From positions 4,253-68,252 of the IMG/VR virus record IMGVR_UViG_3300026518_000007: DNA of 64,000 bases. One strand, 5' to 3'. This document shows positions 4,211-59,836 of the stretch, piece by piece (positions within the stretch are counted from its first letter, which is position 1; every line of letters begins with the position of its first letter). The DNA is from a virus. The translations under genes and the position numbers were made by a program. The notes under the pieces were generated by a model that was given only the letters and a program-made list of their open reading frames with translations, did no database searches and was not told the origin of the DNA.

Positions 4211-4396
4211 ATGACTAAAAAAGAGTACGATACGACCATAGCTCCTTTCATTAGGAATATTAGTTTAAGAAAATTTGACTTAGATGAAAATGGCATTCTG
4301 TCAGATACATTTTTCAATAACGGTACATTAAGTCCACTAATTATGAAAGAGCTTTTAATCATAACTAAAAATTATTACAAATCAAAAACTATGTAG
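4211..4396 (+). CDS. hypothetical protein
   Basis: AGGAG RBS; followed by a hairpin. Confidence 0.6.
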   Translation: MTKKEYDTTIAPFIRNISLRKFDLDENGILSDTFFNNGTLSPLIMKELLIITKNYYKSKTM

Positions 4397-10894: not shown

Positions 10895-10922
10895 TCTATA
10901 GAGCATTAGCTCTATAGACTAT
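10891..10922 (+). terminator. 14-bp hairpin (no U-tract)
   Basis: ATAGTCTATAGAGC-atta-GCTCTATAGACTAT. Confidence 0.55.
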
Positions 10923-10959: not shown

Positions 10960-13050
10960 ATGAACATAAAAGCAGGATTAGAAACTATCTTCGAAGTTCA
11001 GAATGATGATAGTTTTATAACAGTTTTAAAAGAATTATATGTTAATTTAAAAAACATAACCATAGACTATAATGTAAATGGTGTAATTACTAAAGGCGAT
11101 TATGAAGAAGAGTTAAATACTATCATTAAGACATTTAAAGAAGACAGTACTGAAAGATTTGGTACGCCTATTATCTTAAGAAGTAGTAATACATTTGCAG
11201 TTATGCCTATCATGAATATGGATACTATGAAAAGTGGAATGGTTAGCTTTAAAAAAGATAGTAAGAAAGCCATGAAACAAATCAATGATTTTAAAAAATG
11301 GATTAGTAAGAATGAATTAGAGATAGATATAAAAAATATTAAAATAAATAATTTACCAGATGGTTTCTATTTTCCTTTATTTATAGATATTAAATCTATT
11401 TATACGACATTAGAAGAGGAGGAGTTTATAGCCATCATATTGCATGAGGTAGGCCATATCTTTACTCTATTAGAGATGTATAGTAAGACTACTGATACTA
11501 TAAGTAAATTAATAGATAGTTATTTAAAAGATTTTAGTTTAGATAAAACTATTACTAAGTTAAAGATAACTACTAATCCGTCTGATACTAAGTCAGATAC
11601 TATATATAAAATTTATGAAGCTATTTCTGACGATATGGGTATAACTGAAATAAATAATGGTAAAAGTAATGACTTTACCGATAGTGAATATGAAGCTGAT
11701 AACTTCGTAGCTTTATTTGGATATAGTGCTTATTTAACAACAGCTATTAACAAACTAACTGATATAGGAGCTTTAAAATATAGATACCTACCATTCTATC
11801 TTTTATTTGTTTTCTTATTAGATATATTAATAAGTTTAAGTTACCTATTTGTCATATTAGTCATAACAGGAACAGCCGCACAAGGTTTAGCTTTAATATT
11901 TATGATAGTTAACTTAGCCGCTATAGCTAAAATAGTTACTACTATGTATACAACTATAGAAGCACAAGGTAATAGAAACCCTACTGGTGATGAACATGGT
12001 GATGTTATGACAAGATATAAAAAAATAAGAATAGATATATTAAAAATAGTAAGAACACAACAGTTAGATAAGAAAGAATTAAATGCTTTAATTAAGCAAT
12101 TGGATATAGTAGATAAATCTATAACTGAAGTAGAGCAAACTCTTTTAAGTAGCTTGTTAGGTAGCTTAATATCACCTTTATTTAATATAAATATAAATAC
12201 TAGAGAACAGTTAGTTATGCTAATAGATAATTTAATCAATAATGAACAGCATCTCATGGCTAGTAAGTTTAAGAATGGATTAGAATATATGCGTGAGAAT
12301 GTCATAAATGTATCTAATACTAAATATTATACAGAAGTCGATATATGGAGTGATTATATTAAAAAATTGCTTATAGGCAATATTACAGCTTTAGAAAAAA
12401 TAAATAATAAAATAAATAAATATGGTTTAAGATTATTTTATAATAATACTAAACTAATGATAGAGAGTAACAGCATTGTTAATATTAAATCAGGTATATC
12501 GGGTTTTGGAGTATGGAAGATGAAAGGAAATACTACTGATGTTAAATCTGTTGTGAGTATTACCATAGATAGTGATAAAGTAGTATGGCAATTATTAAAT
12601 CCATATATTAAAGTATACGATATAGATTATATAGAAGTTAATAAAGTTAAAAATATGTATATAATGGAATTAGAATATCTATCTCCAGTATTAGATAAAA
12701 AACAAACTAAAGAGGTTTATGATATAGGTAAAGCTTTAGATAGTATTTATACGGATATAGGTATTAAGAATATAGATGATACTATATCTGCTTATTTTAA
12801 GTATTTTAAAGATAATAAAATAAAACTTAGTAAAGAAGTAGAAGAACAGTTTAATTTAATAAAAGAAGTTATTAATAAATTAGATTTTAAAGATAGAGCA
12901 TTAACATTAGATTTACATAAAGATAATTGGGGAATTAATGAGGATAAAAAGTTAGTTATGTTCGACCCTATATATGATAGAAACGGATTAGCGTTAGAAA
13001 CTAATAATAAGATAGATTTAAAACAATATAGCGATAACTTAAGCAAATAA
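10960..13050 (+). CDS. phiKZ-like head protein with HExxH, fused to a C-terminal protein-kinase-like domain
   Basis: LHEVGH, EYEADNF, TM block, then NGLE followed by SGISGFGVW, DLHKDNW and LVMFDP kinase-like motifs; paralog of 58367-59836. Confidence 0.7.
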   Translation: MNIKAGLETIFEVQNDDSFITVLKELYVNLKNITIDYNVNGVITKGDYEEELNTIIKTFKEDSTERFGTPIILRSSNTFAVMPIMNMDTMKSGMVSFKKDSKKAMKQINDFKKWISKNELEIDIKNIKINNLPDGFYFPLFIDIKSIYTTLEEEEFIAIILHEVGHIFTLLEMYSKTTDTISKLIDSYLKDFSLDKTITKLKITTNPSDTKSDTIYKIYEAISDDMGITEINNGKSNDFTDSEYEADNFVALFGYSAYLTTAINKLTDIGALKYRYLPFYLLFVFLLDILISLSYLFVILVITGTAAQGLALIFMIVNLAAIAKIVTTMYTTIEAQGNRNPTGDEHGDVMTRYKKIRIDILKIVRTQQLDKKELNALIKQLDIVDKSITEVEQTLLSSLLGSLISPLFNININTREQLVMLIDNLINNEQHLMASKFKNGLEYMRENVINVSNTKYYTEVDIWSDYIKKLLIGNITALEKINNKINKYGLRLFYNNTKLMIESNSIVNIKSGISGFGVWKMKGNTTDVKSVVSITIDSDKVVWQLLNPYIKVYDIDYIEVNKVKNMYIMELEYLSPVLDKKQTKEVYDIGKALDSIYTDIGIKNIDDTISAYFKYFKDNKIKLSKEVEEQFNLIKEVINKLDFKDRALTLDLHKDNWGINEDKKLVMFDPIYDRNGLALETNNKIDLKQYSDNLSK

Positions 13051-13055
13051 CATTC

Positions 13056-13103
13056 ATACACATTACCTGTGATGGGTAATGTGTATATGAATATTTTTTT
13101 TTT
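13056..13103 (+). terminator. hairpin terminator
   Basis: ATACACATTACC/GGTAATGTGTAT; T10 at 13094-13103. Confidence 0.75.
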
Positions 13104-13203: not shown

Positions 13204-13408
13204 GCGCTCACTGCCATCTAGAGTACCTGTGAGGTGTATTCGTCCCATGACATAGCTTGTAGCTTATATCACTGGTCCTTGGAAAGGGACTGGTGATATA
13301 AGTAGTAGCGATACAAGTATCAATTCCAGCAGTTACTGGAACAGTGGGGGAAACGGGGGCAGGGTTTAAATACCTTATGGGTGGTGGTTGGGCGCTGGTG
13401 GTGAGCGT
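13204..13408 (+). ncRNA. candidate structured non-coding RNA, unknown class
   Basis: 49% GC island; 13-bp closing helix 13204-16/13396-408 with 3 G-U; 18-bp stem 13263-13302 capped by a GGAA tetraloop; no ORF. Confidence 0.55.
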
Positions 13409-13847: not shown

Positions 13848-14876
13848 ATGAGTGATAGAAGTAATTTACATTTGATAGCATGCGGTGGTGCTGGTATAAA
13901 TATAGTTAGTGATATATATGGTAAGTTAAGTGGATTGGGTAAATCATACGCTAATGTTAGTGTTAGGAGTATAGATACTACCATTAAAACCATACAGGCG
14001 CATCCTATGTTAGGGGATACTTTTACTAGGATAGTGTCTTCTAAGTTATCTGGTAACGGGTTAGATGGTAGTGGTGGCGAAAGAGCTAACATGGACATCA
14101 TAGATGAGATACAGGGTTCTGTTAAAGAGTTCATGGATGTAGGGTTGTCTAATGAGAAGAACGATTATTACGTGATAGTTACTAGTGCTAGTGGTGGTTC
14201 TGGTAACCATATAGCTGCTGCATTATTAAAAAATATGTTGGCATTGGATTATAACGTTATAGTGGCTGCGGTTGGTGATGGTAGCAATGAGTTAACTCTT
14301 AATAATACTGTTAAAACATTAGCTACGTTTTATAAGGTGGCTGTAAAAGCTGGTGCTGCGTTGCCTGTTATATTTTATAATAATACATATAACGGTATGA
14401 CTACGTTAAGTACTGAACAAGGTGTTAATGATAAGATAGCTAAGATGTTAACCATCATATCAGCATTCATATCCGGTAGTGTGCAGAACATAGATAACCA
14501 GGACATGATAAACTTTTTTAAGCCTACCAACTATAGAACTTTTAAGATAGAACCAGGTATGTATAGTTTAGGTATCGCTAGAGGAGAGCTTAATGATGAG
14601 AATACGTTATTAGTAAGAACTCTTGTTAAAGAGGTAGCTGATGATGTTAAGATGTCTATAGTTCCTAGACATAACAAAACAGGTATAGTTAAAGGGGATA
14701 TGGCTGATGATTTTGATATCTATCCTATATATCTATTATATAGAAAACAGGTCATGAATGATGAGATGAGAAGACTTAAACAAGAGTTGGAGAGCATCAA
14801 ACGACAACATGAGACCGAGTCTAATGAGTTCGATGAGTTCGATGATATGGAAGATGATGATGGCATGGTATTGTAG
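13848..14876 (+). CDS. phuZ: PhuZ phage tubulin
   Basis: LIACGGAGINI, SASGGSG, IDNQD T7 loop; acidic C-tail DDDGMVL like the 201phi2-1 PhuZ tail. Confidence 0.95.
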   Translation: MSDRSNLHLIACGGAGINIVSDIYGKLSGLGKSYANVSVRSIDTTIKTIQAHPMLGDTFTRIVSSKLSGNGLDGSGGERANMDIIDEIQGSVKEFMDVGLSNEKNDYYVIVTSASGGSGNHIAAALLKNMLALDYNVIVAAVGDGSNELTLNNTVKTLATFYKVAVKAGAALPVIFYNNTYNGMTTLSTEQGVNDKIAKMLTIISAFISGSVQNIDNQDMINFFKPTNYRTFKIEPGMYSLGIARGELNDENTLLVRTLVKEVADDVKMSIVPRHNKTGIVKGDMADDFDIYPIYLLYRKQVMNDEMRRLKQELESIKRQHETESNEFDEFDDMEDDDGMVL

Positions 14877-35200: not shown

Positions 35201-37564
35201 ATGAGAAAAATGAAAAAACCGTCTAAAAATATAGATGCTAGGAATAGTTTATTAAAATCAGCACATGGTTTTATTAATACTGACCAAAATAGTTCTGTAA
35301 AGGCTAAAGACTTAGCTTCTATACAGCAACATAGTAGAAATATATCAGGCATAGTATCCGATATAACGGAGATATTCCCAGATATAGAATTAGTAATAGA
35401 GATAATGACATCTTTAATTATATCACCCAACGATATGCAGAATAATGGGGTTTATTGTAAACTAAATAATTTTAAACTTCCTGTAAATGTGCAAAATATA
35501 ATAATGGATGTAAGTAGGACGTATATTAACGGGGAATATGATTATCTAGATAAATTAGATACCATCATTTCTGAAACCCTATATACACAAGGTTCATATG
35601 TGGAATTAAATATACCACCTAGTAATATAAAGAAACTTCTAGATACTATTAAGAAAACGCCTACTTCCGGGTTAGAAGATATTATGTCATCCAGTAAACC
35701 TATTTTTAGCGAATCTATATCTACATATAAAGAACCTAAAGATAGTCCTATAGAATTTTCAGATAATCCTTTAAATATATGCAGTGATATTTTAAACGAT
35801 ACTATGATTAAAGTAGGAAATGAAGCTTCGTTATTTAACACAGCATATAATGAAACTACTATAGCTTTAGAGAGTATGTTTATAGATAGTAATGGTTATG
35901 GTGTTATGGACGATACTGACATAGACTATAATAAACCTATCATTAAGAAAATGGATAGCTTTAACGTAATACCTGTTTGCGCTAAAAATGACCCTAATAA
36001 ACATTATGGTTATTTTATTTTTCTAGACGATAATGGACTACCTATTAAAGAAACTACATTAACGGTAGATGAGTCTGTTAACATATTTAAAAAAGTAAAA
36101 CATAATATAAAAGGTATAGCTAAAGATACACCTAATATTTCTAACATAGATGATGTTAGGAAAATATTCTTAGGTAATAAACTTAATAGTTATTTAAAAG
36201 AGAGCAAATATAAAAATTTGATAGATAGTAATATAGAAATAGATAATGGACTTCTCTTATCTATAGCTGATACTATTTTAAGCGAAAGTAAGCTTAAGAT
36301 TATTTTTATGCCGGAAGAGCTTGTTAGTTACTATGCCATTAATTATAGGAGTAACGGAACTGGTGAAAGTCTTTTAGAAAGAACAACTGTCCTAGCTAGT
36401 ATAAGAGGTATTATACTATTTACGAACCTTTTATCATATATTAAAAGTAGTACAACTACTACTGAAGTTAATGTAGATTTAGACCCAGAAGACCCTAATT
36501 TTAGAAAAACATCAGAGATGATAATGGGTAACATTATTTCTAATAGACAGGTTAGTCTACCTATAGGTATGCTAAAAGCAGATGACTTCGTAGACTGGAC
36601 ACATAAATTAGGTTATAGTTTCAATTTTAAGCATCCTAGTGCTCCTGATGTTAGCATAGATATAGATGAAAAAAGTGTAGATATAAGTCCTGTAGATAGT
36701 GACTTAAAAGAAAACATAGATAAACTACTTATAACTAGTTTATATTTAACTCCTGAAATATTAGATAATAGCTATAGTCCTGATTTTGCTACAACTGTTA
36801 TAGCTAATAATCTATTACTTAGTAAGAGAGTATCTAAACTGCAGAGAAAGTTTAATATACTTATAACAAAAGATATTAGAAAGAAATTATTATTAGATGG
36901 TAAATTTAAAAATAAAATAAAAGATATATTAGAAACTGAAATTAAAAGTATTAGAAAGTATATATTAAAATCTAATAATCCTAATGTAGATACTGAAATT
37001 ATTAAGAAAGTATCTGATGATGTTCTAATAGAATGGTTAGCTAGTACGACTATTAAACATTTAGTAATAGAATTACCTAAACCTGAAGTTACTGATGATA
37101 GTAATAGTAAGGATTTATTAGATGATTTTATAGATGAAATAGATAAAATAACAGATATATTAATGAGTACTGATGCTATACCTGATGATTTAATAGGTGA
37201 TTTTGGCGATAAGATGGATGATGCTAAAGCAGCTATTAAAGTAATGCTAACTAAGCGTTATATAAGCGAAAATAATATACTACCTGAATTAACTAATATA
37301 TTAACATTAGACGAAGATGGTAATCCTAATAATAATATATTAGAAGAGTTTACATCACATATAGATGTTTTAACAAAACTGATATTACCATTTGTAAAAG
37401 ATACTAATAAGACTAAGAAAATCTTAGATGAAAAAATAGATAAATTAGATAACGCTGAAGATGAGGCTGATGAAGATAACGATAATGATAATGTAGAAGA
37501 TAATGTAGAAGATAATAATGATAACGATACTGAAAATAGTGGAGATGAAACTGATGAGTTATAG
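35201..37564 (+). CDS. portal protein (phiKZ gp129-like)
   Basis: FPDIELVIEIMTSLIISPNDM, GYFIFLD, YYAINY..GTGESLLE, LASIR..LF, VDLDPEDP; acidic tail. Confidence 0.75.
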   Translation: MRKMKKPSKNIDARNSLLKSAHGFINTDQNSSVKAKDLASIQQHSRNISGIVSDITEIFPDIELVIEIMTSLIISPNDMQNNGVYCKLNNFKLPVNVQNIIMDVSRTYINGEYDYLDKLDTIISETLYTQGSYVELNIPPSNIKKLLDTIKKTPTSGLEDIMSSSKPIFSESISTYKEPKDSPIEFSDNPLNICSDILNDTMIKVGNEASLFNTAYNETTIALESMFIDSNGYGVMDDTDIDYNKPIIKKMDSFNVIPVCAKNDPNKHYGYFIFLDDNGLPIKETTLTVDESVNIFKKVKHNIKGIAKDTPNISNIDDVRKIFLGNKLNSYLKESKYKNLIDSNIEIDNGLLLSIADTILSESKLKIIFMPEELVSYYAINYRSNGTGESLLERTTVLASIRGIILFTNLLSYIKSSTTTTEVNVDLDPEDPNFRKTSEMIMGNIISNRQVSLPIGMLKADDFVDWTHKLGYSFNFKHPSAPDVSIDIDEKSVDISPVDSDLKENIDKLLITSLYLTPEILDNSYSPDFATTVIANNLLLSKRVSKLQRKFNILITKDIRKKLLLDGKFKNKIKDILETEIKSIRKYILKSNNPNVDTEIIKKVSDDVLIEWLASTTIKHLVIELPKPEVTDDSNSKDLLDDFIDEIDKITDILMSTDAIPDDLIGDFGDKMDDAKAAIKVMLTKRYISENNILPELTNILTLDEDGNPNNNILEEFTSHIDVLTKLILPFVKDTNKTKKILDEKIDKLDNAEDEADEDNDNDNVEDNVEDNNDNDTENSGDETDEL

Positions 37565-50562: not shown

Positions 50563-52374
50563 ATGGCAATTCAAAGAGGAATTAAAACAGGCGTAGAAAC
50601 AGAAGTAAATGTAGAACAAGCAACTGCAGCACAAAACAATTTAGAAGATATGTTCGTAGATGACCAACGTACAGATAACGGTGAGCAGTTTCAAGATTTG
50701 ATTAGTCTTGATAGTATCCTTATCTCTGATAAAGCGGATGGTGAAGTTTTAGAAGATGCGGGTAAAGCATTTTTGAAAGGTATCGAGTCTAAAAAGATTG
50801 ATGTTAAAATAGCAACTATTAATAAAGATGCATATGACTTAGGTTATTCATTCGTACTTATGTATTATAAAGGAAGTAATGGTAAGGTTTACTACTTCAT
50901 GTCACTACTTGAAGCTACAGGTCGTGCGCCAGTTACAGTTAAACAAATCATTGCAGAAATGAACATTAAAAACAGTATTGCTATCCTTGTAACATCTGAT
51001 GCATTTAATGATTATCTATATGAGCAAATTGAAAAGACTCTTAGAAAAGAGTTCAATGATGCACCACTTGTATCTTTAGAGGGCGTAGTTATCCCTACTG
51101 ATGCTAACATTGAGACAACATGCGAAATCATTGCTAAATATGGCCATGACCTTATCGCTCTTAAAGAGCTAGTTGAAACTGGTAAGGCTAGAGATATCAC
51201 TGCTGCTGATATTCGTAAAGTAACTTCAAACTCAAATCTTACACTTGATGTAATCATGAACACTGGTCTTACTATCAATAAGTTAGGTAGAACGGTTCGT
51301 ACAGATTTCAATGTTGAAACTAACGTAGTCCGTAATGGTAATGTTCGTGATTTTCACGGAACTAACTCTAGAAAAATGCTTGCTACAACTGCTGGTTATT
51401 TAGAGTATATCATTTCTGAAGATGTTATTCCATATACACAACAAATCAAACGTACAGCAAAACCAATGATTATACTTAATGAGTTCTTAGGTAAAGCTCC
51501 AACTATGGGTTATACTTTACTATCTCTTATCAATGCTGCAACATTCACTAACAGACAACAACTAAGTGCTCTTATCATTGAGAAAGATGCTGGCCCACTT
51601 AACTACTTGTTTAACTATAAAGGTGATGGTGCTGGTTTTGGAGATAAGCTATCTTTTAAAGACCCTAAAGCTAAACCTGAAATCATCAATGATATCATTC
51701 GTACGCATATCAGCTCTTCTCCTATCTTCGCAGTTGAAGTTGAATTATATGGTGCAAGTTATTCATATATGACTCCGTTCGTAGGTTTAAGTATTCCAAG
51801 TGCTACACAACGTGCTACTAATGATATCTTATCTGCTGCAGAACGTTTAGTCGGAAGTAAGTTTGAAACTAACGCAGTTGCAGCTAATGAAGGTTTCTTA
51901 GTACCTATTGGTAACTATGTAGATGCTGATGGTAATACAAGAGATATTCGTGAAATCGATACAACATTTATCGCTAAGTATACTAATGAACCAGCGTTGA
52001 TTTTTGAATGGATTTTCTCTAACTTACCATCTCACATTTGTGAAAGTCATACTGGTAAACAACCTTATATTCTTAAATTAGAAGTGATTGATAAAATTGC
52101 TACTATTCTTAACTTACAGGTTACTATTACTGGTAAAGCGGTACGTGTTCCACTACATGGTAGATTTGTAGAAGAGTTAGTACAAAAAGCTATGGCTGCT
52201 GGTTATGCTCCAAGTACTGAAGGTAATCCAATCGGTTATAACGATTTCAATAACTTACAATTTGTAGCGCAAGCATACAACGGTGCTTCTGTATCTAATA
52301 CAGGTTTCGCAGCACAGCAAATGGGTAGCGCAGGTTTCATGGGTAATTTCAATAACATGAAATATCGCGGTTAA
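50563..52374 (+). CDS. chmA: chimallin, phage nuclear shell protein
   Basis: GRTVRTDF, LVPIGNYVDADGNTRDIREID and VTITGKAVRV...RFVEEL align by eye to 201phi2-1 gp105; G/N/F-rich C-tail; high-expression codons. Confidence 0.88.
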   Translation: MAIQRGIKTGVETEVNVEQATAAQNNLEDMFVDDQRTDNGEQFQDLISLDSILISDKADGEVLEDAGKAFLKGIESKKIDVKIATINKDAYDLGYSFVLMYYKGSNGKVYYFMSLLEATGRAPVTVKQIIAEMNIKNSIAILVTSDAFNDYLYEQIEKTLRKEFNDAPLVSLEGVVIPTDANIETTCEIIAKYGHDLIALKELVETGKARDITAADIRKVTSNSNLTLDVIMNTGLTINKLGRTVRTDFNVETNVVRNGNVRDFHGTNSRKMLATTAGYLEYIISEDVIPYTQQIKRTAKPMIILNEFLGKAPTMGYTLLSLINAATFTNRQQLSALIIEKDAGPLNYLFNYKGDGAGFGDKLSFKDPKAKPEIINDIIRTHISSSPIFAVEVELYGASYSYMTPFVGLSIPSATQRATNDILSAAERLVGSKFETNAVAANEGFLVPIGNYVDADGNTRDIREIDTTFIAKYTNEPALIFEWIFSNLPSHICESHTGKQPYILKLEVIDKIATILNLQVTITGKAVRVPLHGRFVEELVQKAMAAGYAPSTEGNPIGYNDFNNLQFVAQAYNGASVSNTGFAAQQMGSAGFMGNFNNMKYRG

Positions 52375-58282: not shown

Positions 58283-58366
58283 ATTATTAACCTTTGTATA
58301 TATTTTCAAAATAACAGCTGTTGAATTAATGTTAATAGCTTGAATTTAACATCTAAAGGAGCCGAC

Positions 58367-59836
58367 ATGTTAACACAAGGCATCGAAAGCATTAATACAC
58401 AAACAAATACTAAATTTATATTAAGACTAAATAAAGAAGCTACAGAACTTTTTGATGAGATTAGATTAACGCTACCTGATATAGTAGGAACTAATTTCGA
58501 TAGTAAGAAAACATATAAAGAGTATGAGCATTATAAAGCAACTATGAAGGTAGATATGATATCTAAGAGATTAACTAAGATAAGTGAAATACTTAAAGAT
58601 AGATTTGGTCTTAACGTAAATATAGAAAATTCTAAAAGAAATCTTAATAGTATAACATATTTAGTAACACCTCCAATGAACTATAAAGTAATTAATATGG
58701 CTATGGATAACTTAGATAGTCTTTTTCCTAAAAAAAGAGCTAATAATATAATATGGGAGACTCTAGCTACTAAAGCAGAACAAAATAGTTATAATACTTT
58801 AAATAATTTAAAAACAGCTATATCAGAAGGTAAGTTTAAATTAGATTTTAAAAGAGCATATGTTACTGGTTTAGAAAGTTCTATTTTTACTATAAGAACA
58901 GATGTATTAGCCGCTACTGTTGTTAATCTTAATCCTGATGAATTTATTTCATTATTATTAAAAGAGATAGGTTATCTATTTTCTTATTTAGAATATATGT
59001 ATACTAGTACTAGAAATACATTAAGTCTATTAGATAATTTTATAACAGAGAAATTCTCTAAGAATAAGAATCCAATAGAGAGCTTATCTATAGCTTTAAA
59101 GAAATCAGGAACAGATACTGAGAGCGATACGGCTATAGGAGTATTAGAAGAGTTAGATGTATTTATATTAAAAACATATAGGATAGATAAGAATAAGAAC
59201 TCTGTTAAATTAGATTTACAACAAGAGTCAGATAAGTTTGTAGTTAAATTAGGATTAGCGGATACATTATCATCAGCGCTAGTTAAGATTTCTACACTAG
59301 GTACTATACGACCTAATGATACTAATTATAAAGAGATAGATAATCCTATATTAACTTTCTTATATACAGTAGTAGGATTAATAGTATTTGCTATATCGGT
59401 AGCTATATTTTCTATATTCGGTATTCTAATTTTACTATTAGTAGCTGGTGTTAAAATAGTTAGTTTCTTTTTTAGTTATTTAGCTAAGATGGTATTAACT
59501 ATCTTTAATAGAATATTTAATAATGACATAGACCAAAATATAACCTATAGAGATATAGGTAAGAGGCTTAAGAAAATAAAATTACAACTTATAAAAGAGT
59601 TACGTAGTGATGATTTAGAGAACGAAGATAAGAAATATATAATGGAACAAATAGATAACGTAAATAAGTCTATATCATTAATAGATGAACGTTTTTCTAT
59701 ATTAGGAAGATATGGTGATTCAACATTATCACTTAACTCTACACATTATGAAGAGGTCATTAATGATAGACTTGAAAACTTAGAAGATAATGAACTTTAT
59801 CTTTTAACTGAAAAATTTAAAAATATAAGGAATTAA
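58367..59836 (+). CDS. phiKZ-like head protein, HExxH-degenerate paralog of 10960-13050
   Basis: EFISLLLKEIGYLF vs EFIAIILHEVGHIF, ESDKF, TM block, RLKKIK..IK, E.NELY..KFKN; ATG 58367 behind AAGGAG. Confidence 0.7.
   Translation: MLTQGIESINTQTNTKFILRLNKEATELFDEIRLTLPDIVGTNFDSKKTYKEYEHYKATMKVDMISKRLTKISEILKDRFGLNVNIENSKRNLNSITYLVTPPMNYKVINMAMDNLDSLFPKKRANNIIWETLATKAEQNSYNTLNNLKTAISEGKFKLDFKRAYVTGLESSIFTIRTDVLAATVVNLNPDEFISLLLKEIGYLFSYLEYMYTSTRNTLSLLDNFITEKFSKNKNPIESLSIALKKSGTDTESDTAIGVLEELDVFILKTYRIDKNKNSVKLDLQQESDKFVVKLGLADTLSSALVKISTLGTIRPNDTNYKEIDNPILTFLYTVVGLIVFAISVAIFSIFGILILLLVAGVKIVSFFFSYLAKMVLTIFNRIFNNDIDQNITYRDIGKRLKKIKLQLIKELRSDDLENEDKKYIMEQIDNVNKSISLIDERFSILGRYGDSTLSLNSTHYEEVINDRLENLEDNELYLLTEKFKNIRN

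Follow-up and report, generated by a model that had tools for sequence, protein, structure and literature searches.

A chimallivirus gene that joins a gp84/gp45-type head-protein module to a T7-kinase-like domain: a possible capsid-borne protease-kinase precursor

The ejection proteins of the giant phages phiKZ and SPN3US and the internal proteins of phage T4 follow a similar scheme, in which the head protease removes a short leader after a glutamate, and enzymes travel inside the head to be ejected together with the DNA (PMC5694885, PMC10052503). SPN3US gp45 is a head protein confirmed by mass spectrometry, of unknown function (PMC10052503 Table 2; PMC5694885), from which the prohead protease gp245 cuts off a 20-residue propeptide after ASE-20 (PMC10052503 Table 2). 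The kinase of phage T7 is a broad anti-defence kinase, which disarms many bacterial defences by mass phosphorylation; it is an early expressed protein and not a component of the virion (PMC13645617). Here we describe a gene at positions 10960-13050 (plus strand) of a 64,000-nucleotide stretch, hereafter the window, which covers positions 4,253 to 68,252 of the IMG/VR virus record IMGVR_UViG_3300026518_000007. Judged from its gene content, the phage is an uncultured phiKZ-like nucleus-forming jumbo phage (chimallivirus). The gene is a clean open reading frame with an ATG start, and its product of 696 amino acids very probably has a three-part architecture, consisting of an 8-residue leader, a head-protein module and a kinase-like domain. 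From sequence and model evidence we tentatively read this product, with somewhat less than even confidence, as a head-targeted precursor of two enzymes, which would be cut after E8 and E442, with both products ejected and the kinase directed at the host.

The N-terminal part of the fused protein belongs, by sequence, to the proven head-protein family of phiKZ gp84 and SPN3US gp45. The module proper spans residues 9-442 (10984..12285, plus strand). The fused protein matches positions 35-440 of the 442-position profile of phrog_2767 with E 3e-16, and the same family profile matches phiKZ gp84, which is annotated as a structural head protein (1e-121), SPN3US gp45 (4e-169) and Goslar gp67 (1e-80). 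Besides this full-length profile match, the fused protein has in common with gp84 and gp45 the HExxH...ExxAD motifs, a hydrophobic block and, C-terminally, an NNDL helix; gp84, gp45 and Goslar gp67, however, stop right after that helix, without a G-x-E motif or a kinase. The window contains a second member of the family at 58340..59836 (plus strand; or from the ATG at 58367), which BLASTP and gene order identify as the syntenic gp84/gp45 ortholog without a kinase: a DNA polymerase gene, the paralog, a 152-aa gene and a 940-aa reverse-strand gene lie in the same order as phiKZ gp82-gp84-gp85-gp87 and SPN3US gp44-gp45. In BLASTP, residues 99-439 of the fused protein align with residues 145-495 of this paralog (E 7e-24, 28% identity). 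The paralog ends in KFKNIRN, whereas the fused protein reads KFKN-G-L-E at this place and continues for 254 more residues. Unlike gp84 and gp45, the fused gene is an extra paralog in another genomic slot, and its relatives can carry two tandem modules.

The leader (10960..10983, plus strand) ends in A-G-L-E8 and is a putative propeptide, resembling a capsid-targeting sequence. In an alignment of 13 sequences, E8 falls in the same invariant column as E20 of SPN3US gp45, the translated gene of which reads A-S-E at residues 18-20; the glutamates of QGIE in the paralog, SNE in phiKZ and TME in Goslar occupy this column as well. The fused protein thus resembles SPN3US gp45 in having a short leader whose terminal x-x-E aligns with the proven cut after ASE-20, and, more generally, it resembles the T4 internal proteins, with their capsid-targeting sequences, and the phiKZ and SPN3US ejection proteins in having a short N-terminal leader with a Glu site. 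Alignment to the proven SPN3US site predicts cleavage after E8, and homology together with the retained cleavage glutamate makes it probable that the fused protein is located in the head.

The module itself carries the motifs of a metalloprotease. HEVGH at residues 162-166 (11443..11457, plus strand) is, by conservation, a predicted zinc-binding and catalytic HExxH motif, and E243-Y-E-A-D247 (11686..11700, plus strand), conserved likewise, is an ExxAD motif of the M48 type, from which the third zinc ligand would come; the spacing between the two is about 80 residues. An HExxH motif followed some 80 residues on by ExxAD is the signature of M48 peptidases, such as HtpX, Ste24 and BepA. Of 22 modules, 21 keep H162, E163, H166, E243 and D247: E163 and D247 are invariant, H162 and H166 are present in at least 90%, and E243 and A246 are nearly invariant. 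Among these modules, HExxH is lost solely in the window's own paralog, where both histidines are gone (KEIGY) and QQESD replaces ExEAD; the paralog, therefore, looks catalytically dead, and the extra, fused copy retains the active-site motifs. Both motifs are also kept in the alignment by phiKZ gp84, SPN3US gp45 and Goslar gp67. An AlphaFold2 (AF2) model of the module (pLDDT 74) has ZMPSTE24/Ste24 as its top Foldseek matches in the PDB and HtpX as 30 of 30 among the Swiss-Prot models, all of them marginal, with E from 6e-3 to 6e-2 and TM of about 0.2. The Pfam M48 family (PF01435) scores 10.4 bits with the fused protein, below the gathering cut-off of 20.3, and 17.7 bits with SPN3US gp45; 7 of the 22 modules match it at E<0.1 (best 2e-4), all below threshold. 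Because of these marginal E values, low TM and sub-threshold Pfam scores, we call the module M48-like, rather than a proven member of M48.

Residues 275-331 (11782..11952, plus strand) form a hydrophobic block, in which 19-residue Kyte-Doolittle means reach 2.8 and over which the AF2 model places helices 274-303 and 306-336, i.e., two helices of membrane length that would make a hairpin. The paralog is also hydrophobic at the aligned position, and gp84, gp45 and the Goslar protein are so by eye. The predicted membrane association is a further likeness to HtpX, Ste24/ZMPSTE24 and BepA, but the membrane helices of the module come after the catalytic motifs, instead of flanking them, and nothing in M48 corresponds to its long helical regions at the N- and C-terminus. 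Taken together, motifs and model suggest that the N-terminal module is probably a zinc metalloprotease of M48-like type that carries a membrane hairpin, and therefore likely to act as an effector itself. Iyer et al. noted that phages of the phiKZ group conserve a zincin-like metallopeptidase that is uncharacterised (PMC7824862); this may be the gp84/gp45 family. A preliminary description of the locus, made from the DNA sequence alone, had aligned residues 1-439 with the paralog by eye, observed that both proteins begin with G-x-E (AGLE and QGIE), and taken the N-terminal part for a head protein serving as a packaging tag. The alignment, the motifs and the head family are all borne out by the BLASTP, alignment and phrog_2767 results above, but a mere tag the module probably is not; HEVGH had been used there just as an alignment anchor, and the metalloprotease motif was overlooked.

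The C-terminal part of the fused protein (residues 443-696; 12286..13047, plus strand; 29.7 kDa, pI 7.8) very likely has a protein-kinase-like fold with kinship to the T7 kinase, as structure models and profile comparisons indicate, and its activity is predicted. A scan of viral contigs with the single protein as query gave zero relatives, and searches of PDB sequences with phmmer and with the family profile gave nothing significant. No Pfam kinase family matched any of the 21 domains discussed below, in a Pfam set that also missed T7 gp0.7 (PF27024 is apparently absent from it). A phmmer search of the full library produced 20 proteins matching the kinase domain. In the alignment of 21 kinase domains (21-38% identity), G512, N547, Y567, D651, N656 and D669 are invariant, and K540, T535, Q630, P670 and N683 are nearly invariant, with K540 and P670 present in at least 90%. 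The AF2 model based on the alignment of relatives has pLDDT 91 and pTM 0.88, and each of its top 50 Foldseek matches in the PDB is a protein kinase or an aminoglycoside/macrolide phosphotransferase (APH), at E of about 1e-2. A VIA search, which is independent of Foldseek, gave Z 6.6 to Mps1 kinase, and its top rows were mostly kinases, including the minimal OspG and Rio2. Among viral models in BFVD there were 25 matches at E<=1e-3, down to 3e-6, many of them annotated as T7-like phage protein kinases; a shape search of the ESM Atlas led to Phage_T7_kinase and APH clusters (TM 0.50-0.70), and a feature search pointed to the T7-kinase family as well.

Sequence profiles, though not equally strong across the family, point the same way. 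The kinase family aligns with T7 gp0.7 in hhalign with a probability of 84% (E 7e-6), pairing D651-L-H-K-D-N656 with D-M-H-S-G-N of T7, and D669-P-I with D-P-V. The T7-kinase family phrog_15752 is matched by 12 of 21 relatives (best E 3e-7) and T7's own family, phrog_2828, by 4 of 21 (best E 3e-5); T7 gp0.7 itself matches both. On this alignment, and given its invariant Asp and Asn, D651-L-H-K-D-N656 (12910..12927, plus strand) is the predicted equivalent of the catalytic loop, and D669-P-I (12964..12972, plus strand) that of the DFG-like, magnesium-binding DPV motif of T7 kinase. T7-kinase homologues have been described as distinguished by DPV at 213-215, their DFG-equivalent signature, the Val of which is less conserved outside Autographiviridae (PMC13645617); the third residue of this motif is I or V in our family. 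The Gly-containing loop SGISGFGVW (residues 511-519; 12490..12516, plus strand), which sits between model strands 65-69 and 73-78 (domain numbering), is a candidate nucleotide-binding loop, and K540 (12577..12579, plus strand) a candidate ATP contact; MELEYL begins at residue 569 and LVMFDP at residue 665. The domain, then, is like T7 gp0.7 (phrog_2828/phrog_15752; PF27024 Phage_T7_kinase) in its small protein-kinase-like fold, D-x-H-x-x-N loop and DPI in place of DPV. It differs in being very divergent, in lacking the shut-off domain and in its occurrence in a chimallivirus; and, where T7 gp0.7 is a free early gene, the kinase of the window clade is fused to a head-protein module or encoded directly after one.

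The jumbo phages Munch and G17 are not phiKZ-like. Both are named as carriers of T7-kinase homologues, and homologues in jumbo phages and prophages likewise lack the shut-off/DNA-binding domain (PMC13645617). We found no counterpart of the kinase domain in phiKZ, SPN3US or Goslar. Two 270-aa phiKZ genes upstream of PhuZ, gp36 and gp37 (gp38 lies between), were considered as counterparts and rejected, with hhalign probabilities below 1%; phrog_3809 was not found in these three phages either, in a search that gave no signal in control genomes.

Between the two enzymes lies G440-L-E442 (12277..12285, plus strand), which motif and conservation mark as a putative prohead-protease cleavage site. About 17 metagenomic relatives have one or two protease-like modules and a kinase. 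G-x-E occurs within the first 25 residues in 14 of 18 fused relatives, one more having S-T-E, and [G/A/S]-x-E occurs at the module-kinase junction, or a few residues from it, in 16 of 17; these counts come from related sequences, hence are not independent trials. Per position, G-x-E is expected from composition at about 0.003 and is observed overall at 0.0047; neither the placement of the motif nor the conservation of the kinase residues looks like chance. The motif, typically in the form V/A-G-L/I-E-S/A, is also found between the tandem modules of the 1150-aa forms. In one relative, P0015, the N-terminal, inter-module and junction motifs are all missing together, and this joint loss, a single case, fits one shared function for the sites. 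The protease specificity is known to vary among phages, from A-X-E in SPN3US to S/A/G-X-E in phiKZ and S/A/G/T-X-E in 201phi2-1 (PMC5694885), which makes a G-x-E preference in the window clade plausible. Motif and conservation leave cleavage at E442 evenly balanced in our estimate.

The portal homolog (35201..37564, plus strand; 787 amino acids; tblastn to phiKZ gp129, E 1e-54) serves as an internal control for the cleavage motif. It has five [SAG]-x-E motifs, three of which (SGLE, VGNE and IALE) cluster at residues 157-226, before the conserved core; VGNE aligns with IATE of phiKZ, and SGLE lies within 5 columns of the proven ATE-161 cut of SPN3US (PMC10052503). The portal homolog thus carries G-x-E in the region where SPN3US and phiKZ have A/S-x-E sites, and these candidate maturation sites suggest that, like SPN3US gp81, it has a propeptide, of about 225 residues. 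The preliminary description had reported the GLE junction (nt 12277-12285), SGISGFGVW, MELEYL, DLHKDN (nt 12910) and LVMFDP, and all of them lie where it put them. Its kinase-like C-terminal domain is upheld by the AF2 model and its Foldseek matches to kinases and APH, and its suggestion of APH/RIO-like or phage protein-kinase-like kinship holds as far as kinase-like is concerned and is narrowed by hhalign and PHROG to T7-kinase-like. The proposed prohead-protease type of the motif gains from the position of the N-terminal Glu in the proven SPN3US cut column and from G-x-E motifs at or near the junction in the relatives.

The relatives occur in four forms: one module and a kinase, about 680 residues; two tandem HExxH modules and a kinase, about 1150 residues; the latter with a further domain of about 200 residues (P0014 and P0015); and a kinase alone, of 253-263 residues, encoded by a separate gene in three relatives. 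In the two of these with readable upstream DNA, 2-4 bases separate the kinase gene from a two-module gene that precedes it (L009, 3144-6789; L010, 3181-6762), and in L009 the two-module gene contains, at its very end, the ribosome-binding site of the kinase gene. These separate genes confirm the domain boundary, point to a tight functional link and show that covalent attachment of the kinase is dispensable. In all relatives examined that have upstream DNA, the gene lies between a RecJ-like exonuclease and PhuZ; because the kinase is fused to the module gene or directly follows it, always in this slot, we regard protease and kinase as functionally linked. The kinase-domain tree is poorly resolved, with one-module and two-module forms interleaved, and since it is mostly unresolved the number of fusion or fission events cannot be read from it. 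The extra domain shared by P0014 (residues 1150-1358) and P0015 (residues 1000-1236) is C-terminal to the kinase; it has zero Pfam matches, and there is no G-x-E between it and the kinase.

The mechanism that we propose combines these features. The leader, ending in AGLE8, and the gp84/gp45-type module would place the precursor in the prohead, where the chimallivirus S80 prohead protease, of the phiKZ gp175 / SPN3US gp245 type, would cut after Glu 8 and Glu 442. The second cut would release, while still within the capsid, a T7-gp0.7-like Ser/Thr kinase of 29.7 kDa. On infection, both cleavage products would leave the head along with the DNA; the protease would enter a membrane by means of its hairpin, and the kinase would phosphorylate host proteins, for takeover or against defence, before phage transcription. 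Ejection and host-directed action are possible but doubtful in our estimate. The second cut, releasing a C-terminal enzyme domain, is what would set this system apart from the ejection proteins of T4, phiKZ and SPN3US. To our knowledge, no protein kinase has been described as phage capsid cargo, and full-text literature searches for such a case found none.

A number of observations weigh against this proposal, and we consider them together with the alternatives that they favour. On the side of the kinase, the domain of the window matches phrog_15752 weakly (E 0.015), and K540 starts a helix (96-104 of the domain model) instead of lying in the canonical strand, which makes its role uncertain. 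Instead of a host-directed protein kinase, the C-terminal domain might be a pseudokinase or an APH-like phosphotransferase for small molecules, or it might phosphorylate head proteins of the phage or the neighbouring protease. Aminoglycoside and amicoumacin phosphotransferases match it as strongly as protein kinases do in the PDB and the Atlas, the position of the conserved Lys is non-canonical, and the His of DLHxxN is not invariant in the 21 kinase domains. The T7 C-terminal shut-off/DNA-binding domain is absent, the protein ending 27 residues past the DPI motif, and the tight genetic link could mean that the protease module is the substrate. A dead enzyme, however, is hard to reconcile with the catalytic Asp, the Asn and the Asp of DPx being invariant in 21 of 21 domains, and the sole relatives at the sequence level are T7-type protein kinases; we consider this whole group of alternatives quite improbable.

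The junction raises a different issue. In the window it reads N-G-L-E-Y, without the Val or Ala at P4 and the Ser at P1' that are seen in the relatives; the SPN3US protease prefers exactly these residues (PMC10052503), so that its preference agrees with the sites of the relatives and less with that of the window. Moreover, the proven SPN3US cuts, bar those of the protease itself, remove N-terminal propeptides and never a C-terminal domain (PMC10052503). The protein might, then, be packaged but stay uncut at E442, as an intact membrane-anchored protease-kinase, with its hairpin entering, after ejection, the inner membrane of the host or the vesicle of early infection, where the kinase would act. 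The position of the hydrophobic hairpin between the two enzymes would suit such an arrangement, as would the less canonical junction, the N-terminal nature of the known SPN3US cuts, and the persistence of the fusion in P0015 in spite of the loss of its G-x-E sites. But the presence of G-x-E at nearly every module boundary, including those between tandem modules, is hard to explain without cleavage, and in some relatives the kinase is a separate polypeptide anyway; on balance, an uncut fusion seems unlikely to us.

Other points concern the virion itself. The fused gene is a non-syntenic paralog, in the slot between RecJ-like exonuclease and PhuZ, amid replication and PhuZ genes; the stand-alone kinases of L009 and L010 have no G-x-E leader, which weakens the notion that covalent capsid targeting is essential; and the module protein of L009 has neither an N-terminal leader nor a terminal G-x-E. 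The genes for the prohead protease and the major capsid protein were not found in the 99-kb parent record, which is rated 36% complete, and tblastn with the phiKZ gp175 prohead protease gave zero matches in that incomplete record; a homologous prohead protease is present in all analysed giant phages of the group (PMC5694885). The fused protein might be absent from the virion and made during infection, as T7 gp0.7 is: an M48-like protease bound to a membrane inside the cell, to which a T7-like kinase is attached or with which it is co-translated, and in which G-x-E is an inherited relic or a structural element. The location of the gene outside the syntenic head-gene slot, the leaderless stand-alone kinases, and the T7 kinase being an expressed early protein (PMC13645617) would all fit. 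A relic, however, would be expected to drift, and the N-terminal Glu is invariant at the SPN3US cut position across 25-40% identity; besides, virion genes of phiKZ-like phages are dispersed over the genome. We judge this explanation improbable, and retain the head-targeted, twice-cut precursor as our working proposal. The L009 module protein begins (MSFIQPQLND) at the very place where a mature N-terminus would be expected, as if the leader had been lost along with the fusion.

The window encodes the PhuZ tubulin (13848-14876) and chimallin, the protein of the nuclear shell (50563-52374), as well as a tail sheath, the portal homolog and a split beta subunit of RNA polymerase, and from these genes we assign the phage to the chimalliviruses. 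The parent is a viral metagenome record with a GC content of 28%, and tblastn and megablast searches of 50,697 phage records at default thresholds revealed no close cultured phage. In phiKZ, the gene directly after PhuZ, gp40 (NC_004629 32968-33450), belongs to the dual-specificity protein phosphatase family; it lies in the neighbourhood that the kinase has in the window clade.

The flanks of the fused gene contain two potential hairpins. One, at window positions 10895-10922, is a perfect inverted repeat (AGTCTATAGAGC atta GCTCTATAGACT; 12 bp, with a loop of 4 nt); it is directly 3' of the stop codon of the RecJ-like gene, and the fused gene starts 38 nt downstream of it. It is not followed by a T-run, and its role might be that of a terminator, a processing site or a regulatory hairpin. 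The other, with a 13-bp stem, at 13055-13087, is directly 3' of the stop codon of the fused gene, just before a GC-rich RNA candidate (13204-13408), and it was scored as terminator-like on the minus strand. A scan for sigma-70 promoters gave counts below shuffle expectation, and k-mer enrichment was uninformative about promoter class or expression timing in this 28% GC genome.

The period between DNA entry and assembly of the nucleus is one that chimalliviruses have to survive, and the known answers are the ejected RNA polymerase and the lipid vesicle. It is conceivable, though we would not call it probable, that the window clade adds to these by pre-loading its capsid with a T7-type promiscuous kinase and a membrane-inserting M48-like protease, which would be made as one precursor, separated by the prohead protease and co-injected with the genome, so that host targets of defence and takeover would be phosphorylated, and perhaps cleaved, within seconds of the start of infection, before the appearance of virion RNA polymerase transcripts, vesicle and nucleus. 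If the kinase is delivered as a protein, this would remove the delay of expression that the T7 kinase has (PMC13645617). The comparison also provides a candidate identity, that of a membrane-hairpin M48-like metalloprotease, for the gp84/gp45 head protein, which phiKZ, SPN3US and Goslar conserve and which is uncharacterised. Finally, the modules punctuated by G-x-E, with one or two protease modules, with or without a kinase, and with or without an extra domain, suggest a general route by which cargo may be added to the heads of these phages.

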